DNA from: Escherichia phage wV7
Sequence record: NC_019505.1
Strand: one strand, 5' to 3'
DNA: 64,000 bases
In this document: positions 14,048 through 31,545 of the stretch, piece by piece
Position numbering within the stretch: the stretch's first letter is position 1
Layout of the letters: every line of letters starts with the position of its first letter
Program-made: the position numbers and the translations under genes
The notes under the pieces: model-generated
Told to the model about the DNA's origin: nothing
What the model saw: only the letters and a program-made list of their open reading frames with translations
The model's database searches: none

Positions 14048-14507
14048 TTGTTTTACCTAAAACAATAGTATGGACACCGTCAAATTCATGAATTTTTAGC
14101 AAATTTGGATTTAAATTATTCCATAAAGAGGTAATAAAATATGATAGCGCACTTTCGTCCGTAATTATAAATTTATTTCCTTTATCTATTTTCCAATCAT
14201 ATATTGAATCATATGAATAGAAGGATAACGGTTTATTATTATAATATGCTTCAGCAACATCAATATAGTTAGATTTAGTAAATGCTTGAATTGCCATAAA
14301 TGGAGAATTTTGTACAGTTTCAATAATTCCGATCTTTTTAAGTTTTATTTCAACATCTTCTGGAACTGGCATTGAAATAAAATCTTCTACTAGATACATG
14401 TCATTGTCATATCTTTTATCAATCATTACTGCTACTGTAATTGGAACATCCTTGACAAACGCCATACTAATACTATTGATAGACATTTCAAACAAAATTG
14501 CTTCCAT
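14022..14507 (-). CDS. hypothetical protein (mrh position)
   Basis: 161 aa from M5; size and position resemble T4 mrh; not sequence-verified. Confidence 0.45.
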
Positions 14508-14515
14508 AATTTTCC

Positions 14516-14857
14516 TCAATCACAAGATGTAGATGAACAACTAGAATCACAAGAACTTCCACATGAATCGCCCGTCCATACATGAACAGGAACATTAGTA
14601 TCATATGAATCAGAACTAGACTGTGTATTCTGTGCATTAGATGATGTAGTAGGTACTGACCAGCGCCAAGGATTTTTATAATATTCTTGGGCTTCTTCAT
14701 AAGTCATAGTAACTGCTTCTACTGTTCCATCTCCCATATAAACATACTCAACTACAGTTAAAGGAAGATAGTCATTTGAAATAGGAACTACACCTTCCCC
14801 CGGAGTTGTAGAGAAAAAATCTGTAAAGAAATTTTTAAACCAATTAAAGATAAACAT
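14516..14857 (-). CDS. hypothetical protein with Cys/Ser-rich C-terminal tail
   Basis: 113 aa ending [17 protein letters not shown]. Confidence 0.5.
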
Positions 14858-15063
14858 TACAAAAAGCCTCTTTTGAATTCGACTTGCTTCTCGCCATAAT
14901 CATATCGAATCTCTGCATTAAATTCGACAGAACCATCTGCGTACATCATAAATGAATGCACAACAACTTCTGTGGACCATGGCTGCAGTTCATATTTCTT
15001 CATTACATGCCGTGAAATGATAATATCTAAATCTTCATTTGGTTTAATCCAACGATTTAACAT
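14857..15063 (-). CDS. small hypothetical protein
   Basis: 68 aa; early promoter upstream. Confidence 0.45.
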   Translation of the reverse strand: MLNRWIKPNEDLDIIISRHVMKKYELQPWSTEVVVHSFMMYADGSVEFNAEIRYDYGEKQVEFKRGFL

Positions 15064-15089
15064 AGTGCTCTCCTCTATAAGATAATTTT

Positions 15090-15119
15090 ATTATACCATA
15101 CTCATTTTGGAAAGTAAAC
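15090..15119 (-). promoter_or_regulatory. T4-type early promoter
   Basis: GTTTAC ... TGGTATAAT upstream of 14857..15063. Confidence 0.6.
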
Positions 15120-15127
15120 CGGTAAAA

Positions 15128-15155
15128 TGAAAAAAGGACTCCCTAGGGAGTCCTT
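15128..15155 (-). terminator. intrinsic terminator downstream of soc
   Basis: Palindrome AGGACTCCCTAGGGAGTCCT then U6 on minus-strand RNA. Confidence 0.65.
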
Positions 15156-15161
15156 GAATTA

Positions 15162-15398
15162 TTAACCACCTATTTCTGTAGGCGTAAACATTGCAGCATT
15201 CTTAGTTTTCCAAGTTGCTGCATCGGAAACTACATCAGAATAAGCTGCTTTTTCTGACGGAAAGATTTGATAATGAGAATCTGCAATACGATGCTCGTTA
15301 GAATAGATTTCAAACGGAACAGAAACTTCCATACCTTTAACTTCTTTGCCTTCACCTGCTGGATGAGTAAAGGTCTTGATGTTAACGAAACCACCCAT
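15162..15398 (-). CDS. soc: small outer capsid protein Soc
   Basis: 78 aa; YVNIKTF and HYQIFPSEKAAYS blocks resemble T4 Soc; TATAAATA late promoter upstream. Confidence 0.7.
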   Translation of the reverse strand: MGGFVNIKTFTHPAGEGKEVKGMEVSVPFEIYSNEHRIADSHYQIFPSEKAAYSDVVSDAATWKTKNAAMFTPTEIGG

Positions 15399-15429
15399 AA
15401 TAAACTCCTTTATTGTTTAATTACAGGTG

Positions 15430-15437
15430 TATTTATA
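15430..15437 (-). promoter_or_regulatory. late promoter (soc)
   Basis: Exact TATAAATA on minus strand ~30 nt upstream of soc ATG. Confidence 0.65.
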
Positions 15438-15579
15438 ACTTACAATTTAGCGGCTTTCCAGAGTTGTTCAATAATCTCTTGGTCTATTTCTTTAGTTATT
15501 TCATTACGTAATAAAGCAATAAGGGCTTTCGCCCTTTTCTTATTCAACTTTTTGAGTTGACGTTTATTTAAACGAGACA

Positions 15580-16098
15580 TTAATAACCTCGGTCCTGACG
15601 AGCAAAGTTCTCGGCATTTTTCAGATAATAAAGTTTAAAGATTTCTTCTGCTGTAAGACCAAGACCTTGGAACATGTTCAGAACGAAATGGAGAATATCA
15701 ATCATTTCAAACTTAATTTCCAGTTGGTCTTGTGGAGACAAATCAGTAATCAGAGTTTCACGACGTTCACCATGCTGCGACTTCCAAGGTTTCCATACAG
15801 CAGATGCGTCTTTTTCACCATTACTCATACCACCAAGAGAAGTCAGAAGTTCACGGAATTCATCATCAATATAATCTTTCTGATTACGCAGCCAATCAAC
15901 AACTTCACCTGCAGTAGCCAAATCATCAGGATGACGGTTATATTCAGGTTTATCTTTAGCTAAACGAACCTGTAAAGATTTCTGCATATCAAGCATAACT
16001 TGCAGCGGGTCTTTTTCATCACCGAGAATATCCCAATATTCATTTTGAGCTTTATCAGCGCCTTCAATCAGTTGTGAACATTCGTTAAAGTAAGCCAT
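15580..16098 (-). CDS. 56: dCTPase/dUTPase gp56 (MazG-like)
   Basis: 172 aa from M32 (MAYFNECSQL); length and sequence match T4 gp56 as recalled. Confidence 0.85.
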   Translation of the reverse strand: MAYFNECSQLIEGADKAQNEYWDILGDEKDPLQVMLDMQKSLQVRLAKDKPEYNRHPDDLATAGEVVDWLRNQKDYIDDEFRELLTSLGGMSNGEKDASAVWKPWKSQHGERRETLITDLSPQDQLEIKFEMIDILHFVLNMFQGLGLTAEEIFKLYYLKNAENFARQDRGY

Positions 16099-16132
16099 TA
16101 TTTTTCCTTTCAATTCATGGGTTAGTAGATTA

Positions 16133-16157
16133 ATTATACAATAAATATATAAAGCAA
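16133..16157 (-). promoter_or_regulatory. MotA-dependent middle promoter candidate (gene 56)
   Basis: MotA box TTGCTTTA, 11-nt spacer, TATAAT. Confidence 0.5.
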
Positions 16158-16169
16158 TAAGGAGGACAT

Positions 16170-16370
16170 ATGGTACAAAAATTAATGGCACTTGTTAATG
16201 CCATCAAAGGTAATAAGAAACGTATAGCTTTTACTATTTCTGCTATGGTAGGAATTTTACTCTGGAACTTTATTTTATCACCAATTGCAATTGCACATGG
16301 TGTTAATATTCCAGTAGTTACTCTTGATACATTTGTAGATTTAGCATTTGCTTTAGTTGGGTTAATTTAA
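16170..16370 (+). CDS. small hydrophobic protein on opposite strand (2 predicted TM segments)
   Basis: 66 aa; AAGGAGG Shine-Dalgarno 5 nt before ATG; convergent with gene 61 with overlapping stops. Confidence 0.4.
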   Translation: MVQKLMALVNAIKGNKKRIAFTISAMVGILLWNFILSPIAIAHGVNIPVVTLDTFVDLAFALVGLI

Positions 16371-17395
16371 ATCTTAGCATATTTAGATAACCGCATTTTA
16401 GCCATCAACCCCTGGGCAATATTATTTTTCATATATTCCATAATTTGTTCAGGGGTTGCACCTTCCTTTCTAATCATATCATTAACATCTTTTGATTTCC
16501 AGGGAGATTTATCCCAAAACATAACCCTTTCTCCTGCATCAACTAATTTAGTCATTCGTTTGATAGTGTCAGGGTGACGAGGTTCATTATCTAAAACCCA
16601 CACTCGTCTATCTTTAAATGGAACAATTTCTAGGTCTAATTGACCGCCAGTAATGGCTATACCATTTTCAATAAAAAGTGAATCTATAGGTCCTTCTAGA
16701 ACATATACATCGCCATCTTTAACTCGTTCGACTCCATATATTTTTGTTGCCTCAGGATAAGCTTTAATGGTGATATATTTTTGAGGAGCATCTTTCTTTA
16801 ATGCACGTCCTTGAAAAGACTCAGCTTTTCCATTAGCATTATAAATTGGAATAACAAGACGAGGCTCAGAAATTTCCTTTTTATATGTTCCTGGTGCTAT
16901 GCTATTAACTAATTTAGGCCATTCAGTTGTAAACCAAAGATATTTCCATTTATCCTTTGGAATACAACGAGCTTTTACGTATTTTATAATTGGATGGTCT
17001 TCCGCCAGTTTATCTAATCTAACACATGACGGAAGAGATTTAATTATTTTCTTCTCAGGTTGTTTAGGAAGTTCTTTAGGTTTTTCTACTGGACGACTTT
17101 TACCTTTTTCTTTTCTTATTTCAAAGATATACTCACGATATAAATCAGGTTCAAACTCCTTTAAATATATTCCGATTGGTGCATGATAGTTACAGTTATA
17201 ACAATGAATATTTCCTTCATTATTATCACCATAATACCATCCACGAGCTTTATTCTGGTCGGTTTTTGAATCTCCACAAACAGGGCATCTAAACCGTAAT
17301 TTAAAAGTTGAACTATTATTTACTTGTGTGAATTTAGGTAAATGAGCTAATGCACGGTATGCAAACTCATTATCAATCCAAGGTATTGATGACAT
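16367..17395 (-). CDS. 61: DNA primase gp61
   Basis: 342 aa; zinc ribbon CPVCGDS...CYNC; TOPRIM-like EGPIDSLF. Confidence 0.9.
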   Translation of the reverse strand: MSSIPWIDNEFAYRALAHLPKFTQVNNSSTFKLRFRCPVCGDSKTDQNKARGWYYGDNNEGNIHCYNCNYHAPIGIYLKEFEPDLYREYIFEIRKEKGKSRPVEKPKELPKQPEKKIIKSLPSCVRLDKLAEDHPIIKYVKARCIPKDKWKYLWFTTEWPKLVNSIAPGTYKKEISEPRLVIPIYNANGKAESFQGRALKKDAPQKYITIKAYPEATKIYGVERVKDGDVYVLEGPIDSLFIENGIAITGGQLDLEIVPFKDRRVWVLDNEPRHPDTIKRMTKLVDAGERVMFWDKSPWKSKDVNDMIRKEGATPEQIMEYMKNNIAQGLMAKMRLSKYAKI

Positions 17396-17397
17396 TT

Positions 17398-17562
17398 TTA
17401 CTCTTCTTTTTCTTTAGATTCCTCTTTTTTCTTTTTAGGAATCTGTTCAGGACCTTTATTTACTACAGCGCCTGATGTTGTTCCAGTAGAGATATTTTCA
17501 GGATTACCACCTGAATCTCCAGCGACCATATCTTCTTTGATAAATTCTTTATATGTTTTCAT
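17398..17562 (-). CDS. small lysine/glutamate-rich protein with capsid-targeting-like N-terminus
   Basis: Manual call, 54 aa: MKTYKEFIKEDMVAGDSGG...KKKKEESKEKEE; N-terminus resembles T4 internal-protein CTS MKTYQEFIAE; coordinates approximate. Confidence 0.35.
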   Translation of the reverse strand: MKTYKEFIKEDMVAGDSGGNPENISTGTTSGAVVNKGPEQIPKKKKEESKEKEE

Positions 17563-17608
17563 ATTAACCTCTATTCATAAAAGCATTAAAAATTTGGTCA
17601 TCAATAGA
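17560..17608. repeat. direct repeat copy 1 (~49 bp)
   Basis: Near-identical to 17918..17966; spans stop of upstream gene and last 13 codons of downstream gene. Confidence 0.6.
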
Positions 17609-17920
17609 TGGAATAGCAACCTTTTCGGCATCATTTAGCAAATCATTAATTTCATCAGATAACATAACATATGTGCCTTTATTTCCTGTAATTGTTACTG
17701 CACAATTACGAACGTTTTCTTTATCAAATTTTAGGTTAATATTTTCGTAGTGAAAATCCTTTAATGCCGAATATATCTTTAAAATGAAATTGTCTTTTAC
17801 TACAATAAACCCAACCTCACTATTAAAACATGGTTCATGGAAACTGTAATAAACCTTTTCATCTATAAAATCGTATGAAATTTTTTCCATTTTTAAATAT
17901 GAAAATTCAGAACTATACAT
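17564..17920 (-). CDS. hypothetical protein (61.x cluster)
   Basis: 118 aa; C-terminus SIDDQIFNAFMNRG shared with upstream neighbour. Confidence 0.5.
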   Translation of the reverse strand: MYSSEFSYLKMEKISYDFIDEKVYYSFHEPCFNSEVGFIVVKDNFILKIYSALKDFHYENINLKFDKENVRNCAVTITGNKGTYVMLSDEINDLLNDAEKVAIPSIDDQIFNAFMNRG

Positions 17921-17966
17921 ATTAACCTTTATTCATAAAAGCATTAAAAATTTGATCGTCAATAGA
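17918..17966. repeat. direct repeat copy 2 (~49 bp)
   Basis: ~4 mismatches to copy 1. Confidence 0.6.
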
Positions 17967-18563
17967 AACATTTACTTTAGACTGTTCTTCAAACGGTAAT
18001 TCATATCCACATATTACAATTTTGTGATCGATACCAAAATACACAGAAGCAATATGATTAATATTATTTTCAGTGAAATCTAAATCAACATCAATATCTT
18101 TTTGACTAACGCTCAAAGGATAATTAATACGAATAATTCGATTATCTTTAACAAAGATTCCACCGACATACTCTGTGTTGCGTTTAAAGTTTACACGTTT
18201 CCTAAATGAAAAATATTCAGGTTCTTTATGAGCCCGACTCATAGGACACAATGAGTAGCTAGAATAAGAGATGTCAAATCCTACACCTTCAATATGAGCC
18301 AACGTGTCATGATTAAACCAATTATAATCATATGCCAAATCCATTATATTGTAATATGTGAAAGGCACCGGATTAACATCATGTGTTGTACCTTTAAAAT
18401 CTGCCCAGGCAACGATTTCGTTATCTTTAACAATTACAAAAATTGTGCCAATAAGATATCCACGGTTATTTTCATCAGGCGTTATATTATAACATTGCGC
18501 ATCAGGAAATTTACCGTATTTAAACGGTGGATTTTTGTGCATATAATAAATCATATTATTCAC
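17922..18563 (-). CDS. hypothetical protein (61.x cluster)
   Basis: 213 aa; C-terminus SIDDQIFNAFMNKG. Confidence 0.5.
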   Translation of the reverse strand: MNNMIYYMHKNPPFKYGKFPDAQCYNITPDENNRGYLIGTIFVIVKDNEIVAWADFKGTTHDVNPVPFTYYNIMDLAYDYNWFNHDTLAHIEGVGFDISYSSYSLCPMSRAHKEPEYFSFRKRVNFKRNTEYVGGIFVKDNRIIRINYPLSVSQKDIDVDLDFTENNINHIASVYFGIDHKIVICGYELPFEEQSKVNVSIDDQIFNAFMNKG

Positions 18564-18849
18564 CTGTGATTTCGGTTACGATATTTTTGTTATTAAAGTT
18601 TTTATCGCAATACAGAACATAATTATACTGCATTACACCACCTGATTTAAGCTGTTTTTGTACTTCAACTTTCATATTGGGGCGATCACGCTCAACGATA
18701 TTCATAATATCCGCTTCAATTTGAGTTTCAACTTCAGTCTGATCTGCAGTCATAGACCATTCACACAAGTCTTTATCATATCCTGCCATAGCAGGCTGAG
18801 CAGCACAAGAAGCCAAAGTAAAAATTGTAGCAAAAATAAATTTTTTCAT
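18556..18849 (-). CDS. sp: Spackle-like periplasmic protein
   Basis: 97 aa with signal peptide; size and position between 61 and 41 as T4 sp. Confidence 0.65.
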   Translation of the reverse strand: MKKFIFATIFTLASCAAQPAMAGYDKDLCEWSMTADQTEVETQIEADIMNIVERDRPNMKVEVQKQLKSGGVMQYNYVLYCDKNFNNKNIVTEITGE

Positions 18850-18876
18850 GATAATCTCCTCAGTAGTTTATGTTTA

Positions 18877-18907
18877 TATAGTATCTCAATTTCCAACAAA
18901 AGTAAAC
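18877..18907 (-). promoter_or_regulatory. T4-type early promoter
   Basis: GTTTAC ... TACTAT upstream of sp. Confidence 0.55.
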
Positions 18908-18909
18908 AG

Positions 18910-19221
18910 CTATTTTAAAACTTCTGTGTAATCACATGTTACAAACTGTTTCTCTAGCTTAACGATCTTACGAAAATACCTTTTACACTGACGAATCTGC
19001 CTCTTCGTAGGACGTACAGCAAACTTAATAAATTCCACTCGACCAAATGGAGGACTTTCTTCTGCTGGAATATCTAACACCAATTCCCACGTATCCGCAA
19101 TAAGTGCTTTGAATTGAGTATTTTTCCTGACGTTATACGGAGTAGGTTTAAATAAAACAATATGCATATTATCCTCGGCAATCCACTTCGCACACTTTCT
19201 TGTCATCAATGAAAGCTTCAA
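18910..19221 (-). CDS. hypothetical protein
   Basis: 103-aa ORF downstream of dmd. Confidence 0.45.
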   Translation of the reverse strand: MKLSLMTRKCAKWIAEDNMHIVLFKPTPYNVRKNTQFKALIADTWELVLDIPAEESPPFGRVEFIKFAVRPTKRQIRQCKRYFRKIVKLEKQFVTCDYTEVLK

Positions 19222-19351
19222 CTAATGCTTTATTAACTTCAGCATATTGAGTAGTAGCCCATTGAACGTCATCTTTCATCATTGCGATTTCTTTAGTAAA
19301 CATGCTTTCATTCTTAAACCACCCCATAAAAACTACCTTTACCAATTCCAT
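19169..19351 (-). CDS. dmd: Dmd (discriminator of mRNA degradation)
   Basis: 60 aa MELVKVVFMGWFKNESMF..., near-identical to T4 Dmd as recalled; own early promoter. Confidence 0.7.
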   Translation of the reverse strand: MELVKVVFMGWFKNESMFTKEIAMMKDDVQWATTQYAEVNKALVEAFIDDKKVCEVDCRG

Positions 19352-19380
19352 AACAATCTCCTCATTTAACCAACAAGACT

Positions 19381-19410
19381 ACTATACCATAGTCTTGTCA
19401 GCTTGTAAAC
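19381..19410 (-). promoter_or_regulatory. T4-type early promoter
   Basis: GTTTAC ... TGGTATAGT upstream of dmd. Confidence 0.6.
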
Positions 19411-20837
19411 TAAAATTTTAATTCATTTGCCAAAGCATCTAACTGAGCTCGAGCTGATTCGTTTCTTTGATAGCGATTCTGTTCAGCCTGAATCTGTTGT
19501 GAACCTGCTACTTCACTCACTTCGGTTGGAGTAGAATCTTGTTCAATTTCTACCCATTTTTGATTTCCTTTTTGAACACCCATCAAAAACTTATTCCACT
19601 TATTCTTATCACCATATCGTGATTTGATTTGCTTAATGAGTTGTTGTTCAGCAGCTGCTAGCTCCTCGGTTTCAATGACCGCAAGCATAAAATCAGCTGT
19701 TGCTGGAAGACCAGCAGATTCTGCAATATCGCTCATGTTAACATCGGAAGAGTCCCAAGCTTGTTTACCGACCTGTGCTGCAGTCCAAAGAACAGTTTCG
19801 GTTTCAACAGCCAGAGCACGCAATTCCTCTGCAATAGCTTTAACAGTTGTGTAACTATTTTCTGAATAAACTCGGATGCGACAAGATTTACAAATACCCA
19901 GATAGTCGACAATAATGATTGTTGGAACAAAATTCTTTTTGAGCTTCAATTCATTCAAGAGAGACCTGAATGTATTAGCATCTGCTCCACCAGTAGGGTA
20001 CTGTTTAACGATTAAACGACCAAGAGTAGATTTCTCACGCCATTTTTCCATTTTTCCTTTATACTCAGCGTAAGAAATATGTCCATCATCAATATCGTCA
20101 AGAGAAACATCGAGCATGTTAGCATCAATACGTTTAGCGCAGACTTCTTCTGCCATTTCCATAGAGATATAAAGAACGTTATGACCAAGCTGCAAATAAT
20201 CTGCTGCTAATGAACAAAGTCCTAATGATTTACCAACGTTAACGCCAGCCATTAAAACGTTCAGTGTTCCTGTCTCAGCTCCGCCTTTAGTAATTTTGTT
20301 TAGAATTCTGAGTTTAAATGGAACTTTACGAGCTTTATTCATATAAGATAGCCAGCGTGCTTCGTAGTCATCCATCCAATCATGACCAACGTAGCTATCA
20401 AATGAAATTGATAATGCTTGACGCATGATGTCAGGAATAGCACCAACATCCGGCATTTTCTTATTTCGTTTTTCCGGAGGAAGCTCAGCATTAGTTTGAA
20501 TTTCGATTATTTTAGACGTAGCATTAAACATCGCCCTTTGCTGAACATATTTTTCTGTTTCTTTTACTAACCAGCTGTGGTCTTCCGGAGAATCAGCTAG
20601 TTTTGAAATAAGTGTTTTTACACCAGAATATTCTGTTTCAGTAAATGAACTATTTTCTAATGCAACATTTAACGCATTAATAGATGGAACGCTATGATAC
20701 TCGTTGACATGAGATTTAATTAATTTGAATGTATTTTTAGCTGGACCACTTTCAAAATATTCTGAATCCATATATGGCCAAACTTTTGAAAAATAAGCTT
20801 GATCAAATATGAGATGAGAAAGAATAATTTCTACCAC
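19410..20837 (-). CDS. 41: replicative DNA helicase gp41 (DnaB-like)
   Basis: 475 aa; Walker A GVNVGKS. Confidence 0.9.
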   Translation of the reverse strand: MVEIILSHLIFDQAYFSKVWPYMDSEYFESGPAKNTFKLIKSHVNEYHSVPSINALNVALENSSFTETEYSGVKTLISKLADSPEDHSWLVKETEKYVQQRAMFNATSKIIEIQTNAELPPEKRNKKMPDVGAIPDIMRQALSISFDSYVGHDWMDDYEARWLSYMNKARKVPFKLRILNKITKGGAETGTLNVLMAGVNVGKSLGLCSLAADYLQLGHNVLYISMEMAEEVCAKRIDANMLDVSLDDIDDGHISYAEYKGKMEKWREKSTLGRLIVKQYPTGGADANTFRSLLNELKLKKNFVPTIIIVDYLGICKSCRIRVYSENSYTTVKAIAEELRALAVETETVLWTAAQVGKQAWDSSDVNMSDIAESAGLPATADFMLAVIETEELAAAEQQLIKQIKSRYGDKNKWNKFLMGVQKGNQKWVEIEQDSTPTEVSEVAGSQQIQAEQNRYQRNESARAQLDALANELKF

Positions 20838-20846
20838 ACTTACTCC

Positions 20847-21209
20847 TTAAAAGAATTTAAACTTTTTCTTTGACCTTTTATTAAATGCATCTTGTAGTTG
20901 CATTGTAATACATTTTTCTACATGAGGAGCTAACTCAGCTTTTCTTTCTTGGTCAAGAACAGCAAAGTCCATTACGACTTTTCCATCAACCCAATCTAAT
21001 TTTGTCACATACACAATGTGTGTAGAACCATCTTCTAGTTTAATGACAATCTCCTGGATAACATTTTCCATGGCAGATTTAATTATCTTAAGAGATTCAT
21101 TAAAAAGACGTTCTTTTCTTTCTTCTTCCCCCTCCGAAGAGGGGGATTCATCGATAATTTCTAGATCTAAATCTAAATCATCTTTATTCATTAAATTCTT
21201 CCATATCAC
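20847..21209 (-). CDS. 40: gp40-like protein
   Basis: 120 aa between 41 and uvsX; assignment positional. Confidence 0.5.
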   Translation of the reverse strand: MIWKNLMNKDDLDLDLEIIDESPSSEGEEERKERLFNESLKIIKSAMENVIQEIVIKLEDGSTHIVYVTKLDWVDGKVVMDFAVLDQERKAELAPHVEKCITMQLQDAFNKRSKKKFKFF

Positions 21210-22365
21210 TTAACTGCTCGAGGTCAGTTTCTAAATCAGCAGCTGATTTACTTTTACTTTCTGGAGATTTAAATTTTTCAACCTTTGAGTTAATCAATTC
21301 ATCAACTTCAGCTTCAACAATTTCATTACTATCAATAGCACCTAACTGATAAGCACGCTTAATAGCATCTCGGAATGGTTGATGCTTAAATAAAGGACCC
21401 CAGAATGTGGTGCAGTTAGTATCTTTTGCACGCCAAGATTTTTCTTCGCGAATCATCTCACCGGTTTCTTCATCAAGAAATTCACGAGCATACCAACCAT
21501 TTTTAGGTTTTACCACGAATCCTAATTCTAGAGCCATATCTAACAATCCAGAATAAGGATCGATACCGCCGTCAAATTTAACATCAATAAAGAATTTACT
21601 TTTTTCTTTAACGGTACGAGATTTTTCTACATTTAGAACAAATTGATACCCTTGAAGATCAGAACCATCTTTAATCTGACGTTTACCGATAATGAATACG
21701 GTATCAGCCGAATACATTACGCCTGTACCACCTGTCATCACGGTTTTACTAAACATTTCAATTGTTTCAATTGTATGGTTAACCGCAACGCATGGAATAT
21801 TTTTAATGCTAAAGTAAGGAGTAACAATACGAAATAATGACTTCAGTGATTTAGCACGAGTCATATCTGCCACAGATTTTTCATTCAAGGCATCTTCCGT
21901 TTCTTTCTTAGAAGCCATATTACCGATTGAATCGATGAATACAATGACTTTTTCACCGCGCTCAATAGCTTCAAGCTGATTCACCATATCAATTTTCAGC
22001 TGTTCAACTGACTGAATCGGCGTATGAATTATTCGTTCCGGGTCAACTCCCATGGATCGCAAATAAGCTGGAGTAATACCAAATTCGCTATCATAGAATA
22101 GACAAACCGCGTCAGGATATTTGTTCAAATATGCCGCAACCATAGTCAAAGACATATTTGATTTAAAGTGTTTAGAAGGCCCTGCGAAAATAGTTAAACC
22201 AGACTGCATGCCGCCATCAATCGCACCAGAAATAGCAATATTAAGCATTGGAATTTTTGTACGAATTACATCCTTTTCATTAAAGAATTTAGATGTAGTC
22301 AGTTCAGCAGTCATTTTAGAAGTGGAAGCTTTAATCAAACGGGATTTTAAATCTGCAATAGACAT
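21184..22365 (-). CDS. uvsX: UvsX recombinase (RecA-like)
   Basis: 393 aa; strong similarity to T4 UvsX as recalled. Confidence 0.9.
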   Translation of the reverse strand: MSIADLKSRLIKASTSKMTAELTTSKFFNEKDVIRTKIPMLNIAISGAIDGGMQSGLTIFAGPSKHFKSNMSLTMVAAYLNKYPDAVCLFYDSEFGITPAYLRSMGVDPERIIHTPIQSVEQLKIDMVNQLEAIERGEKVIVFIDSIGNMASKKETEDALNEKSVADMTRAKSLKSLFRIVTPYFSIKNIPCVAVNHTIETIEMFSKTVMTGGTGVMYSADTVFIIGKRQIKDGSDLQGYQFVLNVEKSRTVKEKSKFFIDVKFDGGIDPYSGLLDMALELGFVVKPKNGWYAREFLDEETGEMIREEKSWRAKDTNCTTFWGPLFKHQPFRDAIKRAYQLGAIDSNEIVEAEVDELINSKVEKFKSPESKSKSAADLETDLEQLSDMEEFNE

Positions 22366-22442
22366 TCATTTTTTCCATAGGCATCATTATATTTTCCTCA
22401 CTGGTTAAAGATAGAGTAATTATAACACAATAAATTTAGGCA

Positions 22443-23291
22443 TTAATCAACTGCTATCGGATGAATAGCATTAAACTTATGAAATGCTTCTGATTTTTCT
22501 TTACGCGAAACGCACATGCGAAGAACCTTTAATGGCTCGTTTTCTTCACCCAACGATTTTCGTTTTTCAATATTAGAAGTTTTCCAACGAGCTTGCTCTG
22601 GAAACTCTCTATTGATTTGCTCAAGCGCTCTATTATGTTTAGAATTACTACGAATTGAACTGCACCCGCCAGGAGCTTGTGCTTTTCCAGATACAACCAG
22701 ATATTTGAACAAGGCCAAATGCGGATAACCTTGATTAATTAAATTGAGAAATGCATACATATCTTCGCACAAATCAATTTTTCCATACCCAATTTGTTCT
22801 GTCGTAAGTTTTCCGAGGTCATACCATGTATTCGTGAATCCATATGAATTTTCACGATAATTACCCCAAGATGAAGTAATTTTAAAAATAGGTAGACGAG
22901 CATGGCCATGATAATACCCGCAATCCATGGCATCTTCAACGTATTGAATCAATTCATAGAACTGTTCACGGGTTAATTGATTGACTTTATCTACACAACG
23001 ACGGTCATCTCTTTTTCGCATTGAACTCATACGAATAGTAGTATCATCGTCAATCATCCAGATTCGTTGACCTGCATACATATCAGTAATTGCTTTACGA
23101 GTACCGGCAATTCCATTTACGTCATCAGGAATAGTTATAATTTTAGCTCTAGACCCATAGGCATCATAATAAGCTTTTTCTTCATGTTCACGCACTACAA
23201 TATGGGGTTCATAATCAGTCGGAAACATATCAAGGGCAGAAACTGCCCCGACACGCTGATAACTTGGAATTACGAATTGAATCATTTCCAC
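22443..23291 (-). CDS. GT-A-fold glycosyltransferase (probable HMC-DNA glucosyltransferase)
   Basis: 282 aa; VIPSYQR N-terminal motif and IWMIDDD DXD motif; occupies the T4 beta-gt locus but is not T4 beta-gt. Confidence 0.55.
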   Translation of the reverse strand: MEMIQFVIPSYQRVGAVSALDMFPTDYEPHIVVREHEEKAYYDAYGSRAKIITIPDDVNGIAGTRKAITDMYAGQRIWMIDDDTTIRMSSMRKRDDRRCVDKVNQLTREQFYELIQYVEDAMDCGYYHGHARLPIFKITSSWGNYRENSYGFTNTWYDLGKLTTEQIGYGKIDLCEDMYAFLNLINQGYPHLALFKYLVVSGKAQAPGGCSSIRSNSKHNRALEQINREFPEQARWKTSNIEKRKSLGEENEPLKVLRMCVSRKEKSEAFHKFNAIHPIAVD

Positions 23292-24022
23292 TCACCTTTA
23301 TAGTCTTTTTTCACAATATGAGTTTCTCCAGTATTCCACCAATGATCAACCAAGTAAAAATGACGAGAATATACATGAAGACTTCCGACATTCCATATAA
23401 TAGAACCTGCTTTATACTGACGAGTTGAATCGCCTGCATTCAAATCAGATACTAATTTATCTAATACGTATTTTTGCCATGCATAATCATTACGGAATCC
23501 GAAGACCACGTCATTTGAGCGCATGCTTACTACTGCATTGACTTTCTTATCACGAATCAGGTACTGTACTGTATTAGTACACATGAAATCTGACATACCA
23601 TCTTTATTGTAATCAAATTGCATGGATGGACGAGTATAAATCATGATACCACGTCGAGAATCAGGATTTTGACCAAGTTCAGCTAAACACATATCATACT
23701 GGGCATAGTTATCTTCTGACCAAATAGCCCAACCATAATTCGAGTTAATTTCGCCTTTAGAAGATGCTACCTGCTGCCAAATCTTTGGTGTTTCACCTGG
23801 AATATCTTTAACAAACAAACTCTTAGATTTATACCATTCAAGTTCGCGCTGAATGTATTCATCATTAAGAGCGCCAAAAATAAACGGTTCATCTGCTACA
23901 AATGATGCGCCAATAATTTCAATAGTTTTAACACCGGTTTTATCAACTACGAAATCTTTTTCTTTTAATGCAAGCCCCAAATGAAGACGGATTTCTTCAA
24001 CTGTCATAGAGTCACTAATCAT
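23282..24022 (-). CDS. 42: dCMP hydroxymethylase gp42
   Basis: 246 aa; matches T4 gp42 length and sequence as recalled. Confidence 0.9.
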   Translation of the reverse strand: MISDSMTVEEIRLHLGLALKEKDFVVDKTGVKTIEIIGASFVADEPFIFGALNDEYIQRELEWYKSKSLFVKDIPGETPKIWQQVASSKGEINSNYGWAIWSEDNYAQYDMCLAELGQNPDSRRGIMIYTRPSMQFDYNKDGMSDFMCTNTVQYLIRDKKVNAVVSMRSNDVVFGFRNDYAWQKYVLDKLVSDLNAGDSTRQYKAGSIIWNVGSLHVYSRHFYLVDHWWNTGETHIVKKDYKGEWK

Positions 24023-24029
24023 TTAAACC

Positions 24030-24179
24030 TCAATTGATACATTCATATTTAACTTGTAACAGTAATAAGCTCCAACCTAAAATAATAGTTGGAATCATAA
24101 GAGGAACCGTTACACTATAGTATATACTTATTATAATCATCAAGATTAAAAGCAACACTGTTATAATTTTGCTTTTCAT
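24030..24179 (-). CDS. small hydrophobic peptide (49 aa)
   Basis: Manual call MKSKIITVLLLILMIIISIYY...; ATGA overlap with imm stop; ends 7 nt before gene 42; coordinates approximate. Confidence 0.4.
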   Translation of the reverse strand: MKSKIITVLLLILMIIISIYYSVTVPLMIPTIILGWSLLLLQVKYECIN

Positions 24180-24427
24180 TCCTTCTCTCTGATGATAATT
24201 ACCTGATTTGGCTGTGCAGACTTTTTAGTTTCACCCGCAATTGACCAAATAAATGTAATAAACCAACCAATAATTGACCAGTTAAACAGTAAAGACGTGA
24301 AAAAGATTCCTACTGTTGATTTTGACCCACGCATCAAGGCGATGAACCATGGAAGCATGTATATAATAATAGCCAACACACCTGAAACTAAAACCATAAA
24401 AATTGAACCTGCTACTAAAGTTTCCAT
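24176..24427 (-). CDS. imm: Imm superinfection immunity membrane protein
   Basis: 83 aa, two hydrophobic segments; length and position as T4 imm. Confidence 0.8.
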   Translation of the reverse strand: METLVAGSIFMVLVSGVLAIIIYMLPWFIALMRGSKSTVGIFFTSLLFNWSIIGWFITFIWSIAGETKKSAQPNQVIIIREKE

Positions 24428-24434
24428 GTTTTCC

Positions 24435-24815
24435 TCACTTAGTCAAATTTTTTACACATGAATTATAAGAATTCACTACATACTCCATCGGAGCATTTTT
24501 ACCAGTACGCCATTGGTAATTATTAGCCCAATTAGCCCAAATTTCGGCGCAGTAGTTTTCAATTTTTTCTTCGCGTGTAATTACATCAGAATTACGATAT
24601 GCTTGAGCAGATTCATCTGGACGAATAGCTTCGTCAAAATTTGCCTGCATTTGTTCTACTGTTTGCTTTGGAGCTTCTTTATAACACTTGACATTAGGAT
24701 TATAAAACTTGCTTGAACAGTTTACAATTTTTCCTACATCAGACTGATTTACTACCGGTCCTTGAGCTACACAACCAGTAAGACCTAATGCAATAACCAA
24801 AATAGCGATTTTCAT
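24435..24815 (-). CDS. putative lipoprotein
   Basis: 126 aa; signal peptide with lipobox LTGC. Confidence 0.5.
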   Translation of the reverse strand: MKIAILVIALGLTGCVAQGPVVNQSDVGKIVNCSSKFYNPNVKCYKEAPKQTVEQMQANFDEAIRPDESAQAYRNSDVITREEKIENYCAEIWANWANNYQWRTGKNAPMEYVVNSYNSCVKNLTK

Positions 24816-24825
24816 AATAATTTCC

Positions 24826-25062
24826 TCAAATGCAAGTAGTAATTACTCCAGTAGTGCTTATGCAGGTATTACCCATTTGCACACCTAAAGATCCATTTGT
24901 ATTCACATGAAGATTATCGTCAATTTTAACTGATATTTTACCATTAGTGTGAATAACGGTGCTAGATTTAATCACAGGTTGAGTATCATTTTCAACACTA
25001 ACAAATGGAACTGCTACTAATGCAACTAAACAAACTGCTAAGCATCCCATAACAATTTTCAT
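24826..25062 (-). CDS. small secreted protein
   Basis: Start at M5 after GGAGAATAAA RBS; N-terminal signal peptide. Confidence 0.45.
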   Translation of the reverse strand: MKIVMGCLAVCLVALVAVPFVSVENDTQPVIKSSTVIHTNGKISVKIDDNLHVNTNGSLGVQMGNTCISTTGVITTCI

Positions 25063-25098
25063 TTTATTCTCCAAATCTGTATCAGTAGTTGATAGTTG

Positions 25099-25129
25099 TA
25101 TAGTACCATAGAAGAACAGGGATGTAAAC
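25099..25129 (-). promoter_or_regulatory. T4-type early promoter with conserved leader
   Basis: GTTTAC ... TGGTACTATACAACTATC module. Confidence 0.55.
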
Positions 25130-25209
25130 AGTTTTGTGAAAATTTTTTAGGGAATTCTAAAGGTCCAGAATCATCTGTTTTTCATAAGTATAGATTTATA
25201 TTACTTGTA

Positions 25210-25233
25210 TGAAAAAGGGACCCGGAGGTCCCT
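25210..25233 (-). terminator. intrinsic terminator downstream of gene 43
   Basis: GGGACC-UCCG-GGUCCC then UUUUUCA. Confidence 0.65.
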
Positions 25234-25245
25234 AGATTTATTCTA

Positions 25246-27942
25246 TCAGCCAAACAGGAAGTCTAACGAAGCTTTTTCTTCATAGTCCATACCAGCCGAT
25301 TCACACATGCCTGCAAGCGGTTTAACAAACGATTTTTGGAACAAAGTTGAGTAGTCAATCCAAGACAGTACGTCAGAACGAATTTCTTTTGGAAGTTCTG
25401 TACCCGACGGCCAAGCAATGCATTTGTCACCAAATGGATTTCCTTCACGCAATGGAAGAACCATTACTTTATTTCCATCCAAAATTGGAGCTACACCTAA
25501 ACCGCTAACAGCTCGACGATAAGTTAGCACACCACGAATATGGAACGGGCATTTAAATCCTGGCCAACCTTTATCATCATATTTCGCTATATCGTTCGCA
25601 GTTTTTACTTCAGCAATAACTTTATAGTCGAGTTGACGATATTCTTTCTCGAAGTTCTTGTAATATTCTTGGACAGACTCTTCGCCTTCCTGAAGAATAC
25701 GACGAATACTTTCTTCGAGAGCTTCTTGGACCGCTTTAGGCGTTGAACTCTGCTGAGTTTCCATACCCATGATTTTTAGATGCGGTTCAGCAAATCGCTT
25801 ATCTTCCATATCATAAACGTTCAGAGCATAACGCTTTTTCGCTTTCCAAAATCCACCAACGCCCTTTGAACCAAGTGGAGGGCAAGAAATAGCTTCACGG
25901 TCCATATGCATCAGATGCTCGCGGTTATTCATATAATCACATAACTCACGATATGCAACATCAATCATAGGTTCCATCTTTTTCTTACCGAACTGATTCA
26001 TGAATTCAACTAAATCGTTCTGCTCTTTGAATCGGTCAAGACCAACTTTTTCAATAACTTTATCTACACAAACATATACCGAATCAGTATCACCTGCTGC
26101 AATGAAATCTTCGCCATTAGTTCCGCACACTTTATTCAGATACTCATTAATTTTACGAGCAATCCACTGAATACCAACTTGGCCGAAAATTGTGATAGCA
26201 GTAGCATTTCGCAAATCATAGTAACGGAAATGAATATTACCAAGAGCACCGTAAAGGCTGTTAATAAGAATTTTACGGTTCAGCTGATTTGTATTAGCAA
26301 GTGTAGCCGCTTTTTCACATTCTTCAATCAAACTATTGAGAACAGATTCAGTATAATTCGATAGTTCATTTAAGAAATCATCACTGAACTTAACATATCG
26401 TTCAACTTCAGGTTTAGTTGAACAAGACCCTGCGCCTTTCATAATAATCTTTTTAATAGCTTCGGCATTCATTTCTTCAGCGAACATTTTCTTTTTCCAA
26501 TCTTTACGCTGGAAAAATACTTTAGCGATTTCCTTTGGAATGATACCTTCTTGATGCTTATCGTACATCCATCCATTCGGAGAACAAGAATATTCATCAC
26601 TCGGTTTAGGAGCTGTTCCTGCGATATATTCATGAATTGGATGAACTTTAAACTGACCACGAATAGTCTCAGGACTAATGTTAACCTGACGAATAATGCT
26701 CGGATACAGAGACGTCAAGTCAAAACTCATAATATATCGACGAGCAATTGGTTTAGGTTCAAACACAAATGCACCCGGAAAACTCTGTTTAACATGCGAA
26801 CCTTGTTGAGGAATAACCTTATGTTCACCTTTCAATGAGTTAAAAATAATAGCATCCCAGGTTTTAATAGGACTCATTACACCAGAAAAAGGCATTTTAG
26901 CGTAATAAGACATACTTAAAACTAGATCGATAAACCCGCGAATTTTATCAATTGCTTGAACTGATTCTACGTCAATGATGTTATAACTAATGTATCGTTG
27001 ATGATTAGTCTCACGAAGTTTATTAATAGGACCGTCGTATGGTAATTTACCTTTTTTGGTTTCATGCTGAGCAACTGATTCCAAAGAGAATGACGGCAAA
27101 TTAGTAAATGCGAATTTCTTATACAAATCTAAATAATCAAGAATAGATACGCCATCAATAGAATAAATTTCTTTGCTACCGTACATATTTTGGATAAGTT
27201 TAGATTTTACTCGACCGATTGGAGAGAAGCGTTTCATACTACGTTCACCGAGAACCATTTTAACGCGATTCATGATATACGGAACGTCAAATCCCTCAAT
27301 ATTCCAACCAGTAAAAATAGCAGGTCGTTTCTGTTCCCAGAGATTGATATATTCCATGAGCATATCACGCTCATTATCGAATGGCATATAAATTACTCGG
27401 TCAAGAATTTCTTGAGGAACTTCATCACCACCTTCACAGTCAAGCTTAGCAGCTAACTTTGCATCCCATTTTGATACTGAACCATACATTGAATTCAAAA
27501 GGTCGAAAACATAAAAACGATCATCAATTGAATCGTAATGAGTGATAGCATCAATTTCATATTCAGCTTTCATTGGGTCAGGAAATTTATCACCAGTAAC
27601 CTCAATGTCACAGTTAGCTACACGAACAAATTTTCGGTCATAAACAATTTCTGAACCGTATGTATCACTGATATAAGCGAGTTTAAAATCGTTCATACCG
27701 AGAGCTTCGAGACCGATGTCTTCCATTCGTTTCATCCAATCTCGAGCATCTTTCATTGATGGAAATTTTTGAGGAGCGCAGTTTTTACCATAGATGTCTT
27801 TGTATTTTGACTCTTCCTTACAATGCCTAAACATAGTCGGAAGATATTCTACTTCACGAGTACGTTCCTTTCCGTTTTCATCAATATAACGTTCAACAAT
27901 GTTATTTCCAACTGTTTCGATAGAGATATAAAATTCTTTCAT
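25246..27942 (-). CDS. 43: DNA polymerase gp43 (family B)
   Basis: 898 aa; same length as T4 gp43; operator hairpin at its RBS. Confidence 0.95.
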   Translation of the reverse strand: MKEFYISIETVGNNIVERYIDENGKERTREVEYLPTMFRHCKEESKYKDIYGKNCAPQKFPSMKDARDWMKRMEDIGLEALGMNDFKLAYISDTYGSEIVYDRKFVRVANCDIEVTGDKFPDPMKAEYEIDAITHYDSIDDRFYVFDLLNSMYGSVSKWDAKLAAKLDCEGGDEVPQEILDRVIYMPFDNERDMLMEYINLWEQKRPAIFTGWNIEGFDVPYIMNRVKMVLGERSMKRFSPIGRVKSKLIQNMYGSKEIYSIDGVSILDYLDLYKKFAFTNLPSFSLESVAQHETKKGKLPYDGPINKLRETNHQRYISYNIIDVESVQAIDKIRGFIDLVLSMSYYAKMPFSGVMSPIKTWDAIIFNSLKGEHKVIPQQGSHVKQSFPGAFVFEPKPIARRYIMSFDLTSLYPSIIRQVNISPETIRGQFKVHPIHEYIAGTAPKPSDEYSCSPNGWMYDKHQEGIIPKEIAKVFFQRKDWKKKMFAEEMNAEAIKKIIMKGAGSCSTKPEVERYVKFSDDFLNELSNYTESVLNSLIEECEKAATLANTNQLNRKILINSLYGALGNIHFRYYDLRNATAITIFGQVGIQWIARKINEYLNKVCGTNGEDFIAAGDTDSVYVCVDKVIEKVGLDRFKEQNDLVEFMNQFGKKKMEPMIDVAYRELCDYMNNREHLMHMDREAISCPPLGSKGVGGFWKAKKRYALNVYDMEDKRFAEPHLKIMGMETQQSSTPKAVQEALEESIRRILQEGEESVQEYYKNFEKEYRQLDYKVIAEVKTANDIAKYDDKGWPGFKCPFHIRGVLTYRRAVSGLGVAPILDGNKVMVLPLREGNPFGDKCIAWPSGTELPKEIRSDVLSWIDYSTLFQKSFVKPLAGMCESAGMDYEEKASLDFLFG

Positions 27943-27982
27943 AGATATTCCTTAGTTTATAGCCCGAGTTATTAGGCTCTTG
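27943..27982 (-). promoter_or_regulatory. gene 43 translational operator (gp43 autoregulation site)
   Basis: mRNA reads GAGCCUAAUAACUCGGGCU hairpin then AAGGAAUAUCUAUG; matches the T4 gene 43 operator as recalled. Confidence 0.6.
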
Positions 27983-27989
27983 ATATATT

Positions 27990-28019
27990 ATACTCCAAAT
28001 AAGGGGCCGAAGCCCCTTT
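27990..28019 (-). terminator. UUCG-tetraloop hairpin upstream of gene 43 operator
   Basis: AAAGGGGC-UUCG-GCCCCUU then UAUUUGG. Confidence 0.5.
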
Positions 28020-28022
28020 GCT

Positions 28023-28310
28023 TTAAATTTCTATTGTACAACGCGATATAACGGACTTGCCATCTTTATTTGTGGTTTTGATAATCGCATGAAATGCGCG
28101 TTGGCGTGGGTAAACTAATCGTTGGAATTCTTTTTGGAATTCTATTTGTTTATCTTCCGGGAGGTCAAAAACCAGTTGGGTAGAAGACAGACCATATGTT
28201 TGTTTTAGATTTTCGAATATTAGAAAAGCTTCGGTAAACTGAATCTCTGATTGTGTCATATAATTTACCTTAATTACCAATCGTATATTTAGGAACGAGT
28301 TTCCATTCAT
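28023..28310 (-). CDS. hypothetical protein between regA and 43
   Basis: 95-aa track ORF overlapping regA 3' end; likelier start at internal M18 (78 aa); terminator hairpin downstream. Confidence 0.35.
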   Translation of the reverse strand: MNGNSFLNIRLVIKVNYMTQSEIQFTEAFLIFENLKQTYGLSSTQLVFDLPEDKQIEFQKEFQRLVYPRQRAFHAIIKTTNKDGKSVISRCTIEI

Positions 28311-28638
28311 GTTTTTGTTTAAAAGAAATAACTCGGAAGTTATTAGTTAAATCTTTCATAAAAGTTCTTTGACCAGGAACGATTTCAATCAGTCCCCAAT
28401 CTTCTAACAGCCATGCAATCGAATCACGACGAACTTCATCTTCTTCTGTCATTTCAACTTGACGGCCATCCATACGAAGCATTTCTTTAAAATGAACGAT
28501 ATAGTATAGTCCTTTTTTCTGAAGAATATGACAGGACTGATACAGAACTTTATCTTTATTATTAGCAATTCCCATACGAGTCAAAGTTTCTTTTACTTTC
28601 AGAAAATCTTCAGGTTTTTTAAGAGTAATTTCAATCAT
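28270..28638 (-). CDS. regA: RegA translational repressor
   Basis: 122 aa; position between 62 and 43. Confidence 0.85.
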   Translation of the reverse strand: MIEITLKKPEDFLKVKETLTRMGIANNKDKVLYQSCHILQKKGLYYIVHFKEMLRMDGRQVEMTEEDEVRRDSIAWLLEDWGLIEIVPGQRTFMKDLTNNFRVISFKQKHEWKLVPKYTIGN

Positions 28639-28639
28639 T

Positions 28640-29203
28640 TTACCATTCCAATGCTAGTTTTTTGAGTTGTTTCTGTTCTTTTACGTTCTTAGTCACTTCT
28701 TTCAAAAAATCATCCGTGACTAATCCTTTAAGTTCTTTTAATACTAAAGGTAGTTTTCCATTTTTAGTAAGAATTGATTTATAGTTAATTGCATCATTTG
28801 TATTAACTTGATAACGCTTAGCAAGTAACTTAATAATCAATACTTCGGTGGAATCTTCAACTAGTTTTGCCCATTTACCATATCTTTTACCACGAGGAAC
28901 TGCAGCCATTAGATAATTAAAATGAGCTTCATCACTTAATCCAGAACCGATTAAATTCATAGCATATACAGCTGGCATGCACTCTGGAAATTGTGATAAT
29001 GCATTTTCAACCATGAATTTTGAATAATCTTTTTGAGCAATAGAGCATTTAGTTTTATTATTAATAGCTCCAATTATTTCAAAAAACTCATTTTCAGCTT
29101 TTTCTTTAAAAGAATCAGCAGCGGATTGGACAGCTGTCCAATCTTTTGAATACCAAGCAACTTGATGCTCGTTTAATTGAATATCATCTTCAAATAAGCT
29201 CAT
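28640..29203 (-). CDS. 62: clamp loader small subunit gp62
   Basis: 187 aa from M8 ([10 protein letters not shown]). Confidence 0.85.
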
Positions 29204-29204
29204 A

Positions 29205-30164
29205 TCACTTCCACTGCATTTCACATGCTAACTGAATGAAAAGATAAGCTAAATGCAATTCAGTATTAGCTGCAATACCATGATACTGATTATTTTCGCC
29301 GACAATTTCGTACATACGAATAATACTCTGTGGAGTTACACGTGAATAGATTTCTTCGGCAAGTTTACCCACGAACCACGAATAATCGGCTGCATATTTT
29401 GGTGCTAAAGCTCTGAGTTGTTTAACATCTTTATTTTTGAGAGACTCAAGAACATCATCAATAGCACCACGATCGTTAGTAACCAGTGATAAAATACCAG
29501 CATCCAAAACACCTTTAGATGAATAACTATCGAGCTCGCCAATAGTTTTACGAAAATCAGGAAAATTCTTTTTAACCAAAGCTGCTACAACTTTCATATC
29601 AGCTATAGCAATTCCTTCATGCTTGCAGATTTCAGTCAATCGACGAATCATCTGCTTCATCATTTCAATTTTATCTTCATCGGTCGGTTGACCGAACGTA
29701 ATAACTCGGCAGCGTGACTGAAGTGGTTTAATAATACCATCAATATTGTTAGCAGTAATAATAATACTACAGTTTGAACTATAAGCTTCCATAAAGGAAC
29801 GAAGATGTCGCTGAGACTCTGCTAGCCCTGAACGGTCAAATTCATCAATAACGATTACTTTTTGACGACCATCAAATGAAGCTGCGCTGGCAAAATTAGT
29901 CAAAGGACCGCGAACGAAATCAATTTTACAATCTGACCCATTCACAAACATCATATCAGCATTTACATCATGACACAATGCTTTTGCTACAGTTGTTTTA
30001 CCTGTTCCTGGAGAAGGAGAATGAAGAATAATATGTGGAATCTTACCTTTACTTGTAATAGATTTAAAGGTTTCTTTATCAAAGGCGGGAAGAATACATT
30101 CATCGATAGTAGATGGACGATATTTCTGTTCAAGAATGTGTTCTTTTTCATTTACGGTAATCAT
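29205..30164 (-). CDS. 44: clamp loader large subunit gp44 (AAA+)
   Basis: 319 aa from M6; Walker A GTGKTT; SRC motif; track start was TTG. Confidence 0.9.
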
Positions 30165-30187
30165 AATTTCCTCATTCAAGTTTTAGT

Positions 30188-30213
30188 GTAAATTATAAAG
30201 GGCCGAAGCCCTC
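30188..30213 (-). terminator. UUCG-tetraloop hairpin between 45 and 44
   Basis: AGGGC-UUCG-GCCCU immediately after gene 45 stop. Confidence 0.45.
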
Positions 30214-30215
30214 TA

Positions 30216-30902
30216 TTAAAAATCGTGGGTAGAATCAGCTTCAAGAGCTACTACATAATTCGCGTGTTCACCTTCAAATTTAGCAGCACCTTGTTTACCT
30301 TTTGCCCAGAGCAGAAGTTTATAATTTCCTGGTTGCATTTTCATATTTGCCATATTGATAATAAAATTAAATGTATTTTCACCATCATAATCACCAAGAG
30401 TCAAAGAATATTTAACACGGGTCAGAGCAGAATCTTCTACTTTATTAAAACCGTTAATTACGATTTTACCTTCTTTTACCGTGATAGCAATTGTATCAAT
30501 TTGCAGACCACGAGATACACGCAACAGTTGTTGAAGGTCTTCAGCTTTAATTTCAGTAACAACAGATGCTACCGGGAATGGAATTGGTTTATTAGGAGCA
30601 ACTACTGTACTCGGATCGGCTGCTGGCCAAAAAATTGTTGAACGAGCATCAGCAATTTTAATATTACCATCTTCTGACTGGGAAATTTCTGCATCATCAT
30701 TAACTAGAGACAGAATACCGAGAAAACCGTTCAAATCGTAAATTGCTACATCAAAATCAATAACGTCAGAAATATTCGCTTCTGCATAAGTTGTACCATT
30801 AACCGCACGAGTCATAATAAATTGACCGGATTTAAGCATAATACCAGAGTTAATAGTAGCGAAATTTTTCAGCAGAGCAGTAGTATCTTTAGACAGTTTC
30901 AT
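30216..30902 (-). CDS. 45: sliding clamp gp45
   Basis: 228 aa; matches T4 gp45 as recalled. Confidence 0.9.
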   Translation of the reverse strand: MKLSKDTTALLKNFATINSGIMLKSGQFIMTRAVNGTTYAEANISDVIDFDVAIYDLNGFLGILSLVNDDAEISQSEDGNIKIADARSTIFWPAADPSTVVAPNKPIPFPVASVVTEIKAEDLQQLLRVSRGLQIDTIAITVKEGKIVINGFNKVEDSALTRVKYSLTLGDYDGENTFNFIINMANMKMQPGNYKLLLWAKGKQGAAKFEGEHANYVVALEADSTHDF

Positions 30903-30931
30903 GTAATTTCCTTCAATTCAAATGAGATTTA

Positions 30932-30957
30932 ATTTTATAACTAATTAAATAAAGCAA
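30932..30957 (-). promoter_or_regulatory. MotA-dependent middle promoter candidate (gene 45)
   Basis: TTGCTTTA, 12-nt spacer, TAAAAT. Confidence 0.5.
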
Positions 30958-31347
30958 TTAACGATTAAAATCAGCTGCGATTGTTTCGGCAACAATTTGA
31001 GCAGCAACAATTAGACGTTCATCTGCATTACCGCAATATTCATCTTCAAGGCGTTCACCACATGAAGTCATAATAAATTTAGCACCGGCGTTTAGGGATT
31101 CTGTAGTATGTTTGCGCATTAGTTCAATCCATTTATTACTTACTTCACGATCGATAGCTTCATAATACGCATGACGAGCAGGTGCAGATTTAATTTTATT
31201 CTGAATAACTTCCATTGCGTTATCAGAAAGAGACAAAACCCATGCTCGACGAATTTTATTTTGGTTTTGCGGATTTGAGTCAGAACGCACGTGTTTTGGC
31301 TGAATATCTTTTACATCAACAGTATAATTCACAGTAATTTTAGTCAT
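30958..31347 (-). CDS. rpbA: RpbA-like RNA polymerase binding protein
   Basis: 129 aa between 46 and 45; positional/size match. Confidence 0.6.
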
Positions 31348-31356
31348 AATACACCT

Positions 31357-31545
31357 TTAGTCATAATAATCAGTAACAGTCCAAGCTTCATTTCTATTGG
31401 ACATTATTTTTGTATATTCTGCTTTAAATGCATTCCTAAGCATAGATTCAGTAACTATATGCTCTTCATTAGAAAAATTATTTCTCAGAATATATCGTTT
31501 TATTTCAGGAATAGTTAATAGATGTTGTCCAGTTGAATATTCCAT
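31357..31545 (-). CDS. small hypothetical protein
   Basis: 62 aa; MotA-type promoter upstream. Confidence 0.45.
   Translation of the reverse strand: MEYSTGQHLLTIPEIKRYILRNNFSNEEHIVTESMLRNAFKAEYTKIMSNRNEAWTVTDYYD

Follow-up and report, generated by a model that had tools for sequence, protein, structure and literature searches.

The interval between gene 42 and uvsX

In T4, the interval between gene 42 and uvsX is occupied by segA and beta-gt. We asked which gene stands at the syntenic place in the window, by which we mean the whole 64 000-nucleotide stretch of DNA analysed here, and what its product would do to the DNA of the phage. A first-pass annotation had put a 282-aa GT-A-like enzyme there and had taken it, together with a T4-like a-gt elsewhere in the window, to suggest a T2/T6-type pattern of DNA glucosylation. 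Our analysis leads to the view, which we hold with high confidence as a full explanation of the locus, that the gene at 22443..23285 on the minus strand is a T2/T6-type ba-gt, encoding a secondary DNA glucosyltransferase that makes gentiobiosyl-hmC. The gene, its start region and its partners are as follows.

22443..23285, minus strand: ba-gt (beta-glucosyl-HMC-alpha-glucosyltransferase), 280 aa; assigned as a secondary DNA glucosyltransferase of the TAGT family with a predicted GT-A fold
23282..23297, minus strand: translation start region of ba-gt, with the Shine-Dalgarno sequence AGGTGA at 23297..23292 and an ATGA overlap at 23285..23282
23282..24022, minus strand: gene 42, dCMP hydroxymethylase (Pfam Thymidylat_synt, E 1.1e-15; 96.7% identical to T4 gp42)
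21184..22365, minus strand: uvsX, conserved, which borders the swapped cassette on its downstream side (Pfam T4_UVSX_C and RecA)
34923..36125, minus strand: a-gt, DNA alpha-glucosyltransferase (Pfam PF11440, E 2.4e-236; identity 91.0% with the T4 protein and 91.5% with that of T6)

Both the placing of the gene between uvsX and gene 42 and the T4-like a-gt of the first-pass annotation are borne out by these assignments. The order of genes, 43 – (small ORF) – imm.1 – imm – 42 – ba-gt – uvsX – 40 – 41, is shared with T2, and that of T6 matches, the small ORF between 43 and imm.1 being without annotation there.

The a-gt proteins of T4 and T6 share 99% identity with each other, but that of this phage reaches only about 91% with either; set against the replication genes around it, with gp42 (96.7% identical to that of T4) as the comparison, it has diverged noticeably further. 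Within it lie an A7 homopolymer run at 35831..35837 and an A6 run at 35229..35234; in T2, a homopolymer contingency locus in agt has been reported to switch glucosylation off and on (10.1101/2025.10.21.683753).

A separate observation concerns the small ORF, which encodes 78 aa at 24826..25062 on the minus strand, between imm.1 and gene 43, and has a hydrophobic N-terminus, MKIVMGCLAVCLVALVAVPF. It is found in T2 (T2_046 / RB51ORF048), and at the corresponding position T4, like T6, has no annotation. The ORF is driven by a repeated early-promoter cassette of approximately 90 nt, which stands ahead of three different small ORFs: at 25060..25149 (minus strand), at 6068..6167 (minus strand) and, beyond the window, at 86406..86510 of KP869105. 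Its elements are an early promoter of the T4 type (GTTTACA/ATATACA, then TGGTACTATA), a leader that is conserved, and GGAG with an ATG; upstream of the copy at 25149 there is a strong hairpin (25233..25216). We presume that it resembles the mobile promoter-early/stem-loop (PeSL) cassettes of T4-type phages.

The start and the reality of the gene

The minus-strand ORF 22443..23291 runs without interruption and comprises 282 codons when counted from its GTG. The surroundings of the start, as read from the sequence, are AAAGGTGAGTGGAAATGATT. The ATG at 23285..23283 shares the tetranucleotide ATGA with the TGA stop codon of gene 42 and is preceded, at a spacing of 6 nt, by AGGTGA; it is also the annotated ba-gt start in the T2 record and in KP869105.1. 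All 15 proteins listed for the cluster begin with MIQFV, and 14 of them are 280 aa long. We therefore rejected the GTG at 23291, which is simply the first start met mechanically, and conclude that translation almost certainly begins at the ATG, giving 280 rather than 282 aa. The open reading frame described earlier is thus real, and only its length changes, by a correction of the start of two codons. Nor is it a chance ORF, since 683 phage records contain a homolog over its full length, the lowest identities being approximately 64%.

Three further searches gave nothing distinctive. A scan of 21100..25300 for sigma-70 promoters was at the level of chance, with 16 sites against 17.0 expected. 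A terminator-like hairpin at 23249..23233, inside ba-gt, was dismissed as a feature because three such structures were found and 2.3 were expected. Horizontal acquisition as judged from odd base composition was likewise set aside, the GC fraction of ba-gt (0.375) not being distinctive when compared with its neighbours (0.36) and the window (0.343).

The segment replaces segA and beta-gt of T4

At the DNA level, the window is homologous to T4 through uvsX as far as ~22353, and again from ~23300, a point in gene 42 that is 18 nt short of its end. Between these limits, 0.95 kb therefore stands in place of 1.94 kb in T4. Similarity to T4 beta-gt, which if strong had been named as one outcome that would overturn the first-pass reading, is absent: blastp of the window protein gave a best E of 2.2 over 8 residues. 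The window is equivalent to 18693..82693 of KP869105.1 (E. coli O157 typing phage 7, Tequatrovirus), with 0 mismatches over positions 1..64000 and one 1-nt gap. In the window and the whole 167.7-kb KP869105 genome, tblastn with T4 beta-gt found no match (best E 0.44), which rules out a T4-type beta-gt elsewhere in that genome, and segA was not found in either.

The two enzymes thus share a slot between gene 42 and uvsX and differ in most other respects. T4 beta-gt (PF09198, CAZy GT63, PDB 1JG7) has a GT-B fold and hmC itself as its acceptor, whereas ba-gt belongs with GT-A and its acceptor is alpha-glucosyl-hmC; their sequences have no detectable similarity, and the homing endonuclease gene segA that accompanies beta-gt in T4 is absent here. 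Both use UDP-glucose and both make a beta linkage (literature cited in bioRxiv 10.64898/2025.12.06.692756).

The protein is the T2/T6 enzyme and is widespread

Alignment with the beta-glucosyl-HMC-alpha-glucosyltransferases of T2 and T6, the check that had been proposed for this gene, gave identities of 277/280 (98.9%) with the T2 enzyme (YP_010073690) and 275/280 (98.2%) with the T6 RefSeq enzyme (YP_010067197). The differences from T2 are R11/H, N249/D and P251/S (window residue first), and one of the five differences from T6 is a D that is missing from the DDD motif of that record. N249 is replaced by D in T2, in T6 and in 13 comparable 280-aa cluster members; the C-terminal stretch around it is poorly conserved, and the change is probably neutral. 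The window gene is the ortholog of T2/T6 ba-gt (also called 'ggt' or 'b-gt' in some records), with which it shares the length of 280 aa, the position between gene 42 and uvsX and the partners a-gt and gene 42. In T2 the 4-nt overlap between start codon and gene 42 stop is identical, and the T6 RefSeq start also overlaps the end of gene 42 by 4 nt. Nothing in these comparisons points to a different function.

The exact 280-aa sequence has been deposited as 'beta-glucosyl-HMC-alpha-glucosyl-transferase [Escherichia phage wV7]' (AEM00705.1 / YP_007004785.1), and falls, at 90% identity, into a cluster of 485 members whose source names are to that effect. By tblastn, ba-gt is present in 687 phage records, 683 of them full-length. 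Identity is at least 95% in ~470 records (Escherichia, Shigella and Yersinia phages) and 60–80% in ~200 (Klebsiella, Enterobacter and Citrobacter phages). T4-type beta-gt occurs in only 126 records, and in only 29 of those at 90% identity or more. Judged from these counts, a-gt together with ba-gt is the rule in Tequatrovirus and T4 the exception, and a 2025 preprint also describes this as the majority arrangement in the genus (bioRxiv 10.64898/2025.12.06.692756). The gene, its product, the GT-A fold class and the synteny with T4 beta-gt are already published (PMC13390438; bioRxiv 10.64898/2025.12.06.692756). A small practical gain is that the gene labelled 'hypothetical protein' in KP869105.1 can now receive a name.

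Record labels at this locus are not uniform. The T2 and RB6 records call ba-gt 'b-gt', and the RB55 gene (KM607002.1) is labelled 'beta-glucosyl-HMC-alpha-glucosyl-transferase' while being 100% identical to T4 beta-gt. In vB-Eco-KMB26 (OR539218.1), a 55%-identical beta-gt homolog stands beside a 96%-identical ba-gt, so that both kinds are found at the locus.

Family, motifs and fold

Pfam membership was decided by the curated gathering threshold over the whole domain, 27.5 bits in the case of PF20691, TAGT (TET-associated glycosyltransferase). This was the only family matched, at 38.9 bits (E 1.2e-9), with residues 5–209 of the protein covering profile positions 2–205 of 205. Three features set ba-gt apart from the family as defined in Pfam: the partner is a thymidylate-synthase-like dCMP hydroxymethylase rather than a TET/JBP dioxygenase, the acceptor is a sugar already on the DNA, and there is an extra C-terminal segment of ~70 aa (residues 210–280; 15 K/R, 10 D/E). 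To assess conservation, nine homologs with identities as low as 32% were aligned, and two motifs stand out.

23043..23051, minus strand: DDD (DXD-type) motif, D79–D81, at the end of model strand 74–79; invariant in the nine homologs
23253..23270, minus strand: IPSYQR loop, residues 6–11, a GT2-like nucleotide-binding motif; I6, P7, S8, Y9 and R11 invariant in the alignment

The DXD motif that had been read as IWMIDDD lies at 23043..23063, residues 75–81 in the 280-aa numbering.

A PDB sequence search with the 280-aa protein returned nothing at E <= 1; with no close solved relative detectable by sequence, the fold was tested by model. The AlphaFold2 model has a mean pLDDT of 74.8 and a pTM of 0.75, rests on 9 sequences and falls below pLDDT 50 in loops 136–150 and 202–211; it predicts the single Rossmann-like nucleotide-diphospho-sugar transferase fold that characterizes GT-A, with the DDD directly after strand 74–79. 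The matches listed for the model are GT2-type enzymes, including cellulose synthase BcsA, TarP, hyaluronan synthase, PcManGT and AvpGT, and, beyond these, sugar-1-phosphate nucleotidyltransferases and further GT-A glycosyltransferases. DNA glucosyltransferases, whether alpha or beta, are absent from the list. On the strength of the model, the position of the DDD and these matches, we assign ba-gt to GT-A with moderate confidence. An AF3 model of T6 ba-GT has been put in GT-A, as sister to GT2 (bioRxiv 10.64898/2025.12.06.692756), and the GT-A-like character first ascribed to the window enzyme is thus upheld by the model fold, by D79–D81 and by agreement with the published assignment. From established GT-A/GT2 chemistry, a GT2-like inverting mechanism would fit the known beta-1,6 product made from UDP-alpha-glucose.

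On what does the enzyme act, and is it active?

A GT2-like glycosyltransferase could have come to lie at the beta-gt locus by chance and act on a non-DNA acceptor, such as a host envelope glycan or a phage protein, an outcome that had also been named as contrary to the first-pass reading. We consider this extremely improbable, given the 98–99% identity to the T2/T6 enzyme, the definition of the Pfam TAGT family by association with DNA base-modifying enzymes, and the predicted translational coupling of the gene to gene 42. In T6, deletion of ba-gt abolishes gentiobiosyl-hmC, leaving alpha-glucosyl-hmC only, and increases sensitivity to Brig1 (PMC11078745); the T6 ortholog therefore acts on DNA. 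The same deletion bears on the idea that ba-gt is a primary transferase on hmC, a functional replacement of T4 beta-gt. The shared locus would fit such a role, as would the 288 of 753 phages with a TAGT homolog that have no recognisable primary GT (bioRxiv 10.64898/2025.12.06.692756). However, only the second glucose is lost in the T6 mutant (PMC11078745), and T2, T6 and Tequatrovirus isolates with ba-gt have no beta-glucosyl-hmC (PMC11078745, PMC13390438), so that we give this role, too, hardly any credence.

It is also unlikely, in our judgement, though deserving of some weight, that ba-gt is weak or inactive in this phage, whose DNA would then be T2-like or carry alpha-glucosyl groups only, with ~5% gentiobiosyl-hmC or less. 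T2 possesses the gene and yet has only ~5% gentiobiosyl-hmC (PMC11078745, PMC6024577), and two public T6 records have lesions in ba-gt, which indicates that the phage survives damage to the gene. On the other side, the ORF in the window is intact and retains all invariant residues, including R11, which is H in T2, and natural Tequatrovirus isolates with the gene pair have approximately 40–67% gentiobiosyl-hmC (PMC13390438).

The T6 lesions are an observation in their own right. In MH550421, codon 10 of ba-gt is an amber codon (CAG to TAG) and the annotated ORF is shortened to 261 aa; in NC_054907, the gene is one codon short in the invariant DDD motif, leaving DD. This is odd for T6, which is said to hold the most gentiobiosyl-hmC, and the lesions could be stock mutations or sequencing errors.

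Residue 11 may be relevant to the difference between T2 and T6. Both T2 records aligned over the full gene have H11, and R11 (codon 23253..23255 in the window) is present in the proteins of the window and of T6, as well as in 14 members of the cluster and 8 more distant homologs. The N-terminal 39-mer of T2 was matched exactly in 8 of 685 records by tblastn, seven of T2 and one of SV76, whose genome is as long as that of one T2 record, a count that takes exact matches and that an H11 with a second nearby change would escape. T2 is also the phage whose gentiobiosyl content is unusually low, and R11H in the IPSYxR loop may be a hypomorphic change. That it causes the difference in gentiobiosyl-hmC between T2 (~5%) and T6 (~72%), and that residue 11 predicts the glucosylation pattern, is a tentative proposal that we think somewhat doubtful. 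Were it true, this R11 phage would have T6-like, mostly gentiobiosylated DNA, not T2-like DNA, and partial protection from the alpha-glucosyl-hmC-specific glycosylase Brig1 would be predicted. As between a T2-like and a T6-like state of the phage, the R11 detail is suggestive.

A proposed pathway of DNA modification

In the pathway that we propose, which has been demonstrated for T2 and T6, gp42 would make hydroxymethyl-dCMP, which is incorporated into phage DNA, and a-gt, as the primary transferase, would add an alpha-linked glucose to hmC in the DNA after replication. ba-gt would then transfer a second glucose from UDP-glucose, in a beta-1,6 linkage, onto alpha-glucosyl-hmC, yielding gentiobiosyl-hmC. 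It would do so as an inverting GT2-like GT-A transferase, with the DDD binding metal/UDP and the IPSYxR loop the nucleotide. Co-transcription with gene 42 is likely, and the ATGA overlap suggests that the two are translationally coupled. In the phage DNA we would expect hmC, alpha-glucosyl-hmC and gentiobiosyl-hmC side by side; no beta-glucosyl-hmC is expected, because ba-gt fills the slot in which T4 has beta-gt and beta-gt is absent.

Tequatrovirus isolates that have a-gt and TAGT and lack beta-gt were found by HPLC/MS to contain these same three bases, either at ~1:2:2 or as ~1/3 hmC and 2/3 gentiobiosyl-hmC (PMC13390438). We infer both the proportions of each modified base in this phage and, from the T2 and T6 enzymes, the chemistry of its ba-gt. 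The T2/T6-type glucosylation suggested at the outset is favoured by the identity with the T2/T6 enzymes, the presence of a-gt and the absence of beta-gt.

Which host defences are able to attack a T-even phage depends on the kind of sugar that its hmC carries; among these defences are McrBC, TgvAB, enzymes of the GmrSD/BrxU type and the alpha-glucosyl-hmC glycosylase Brig1. To know that an O157 typing phage has a-gt and ba-gt without beta-gt therefore helps to predict its host range.
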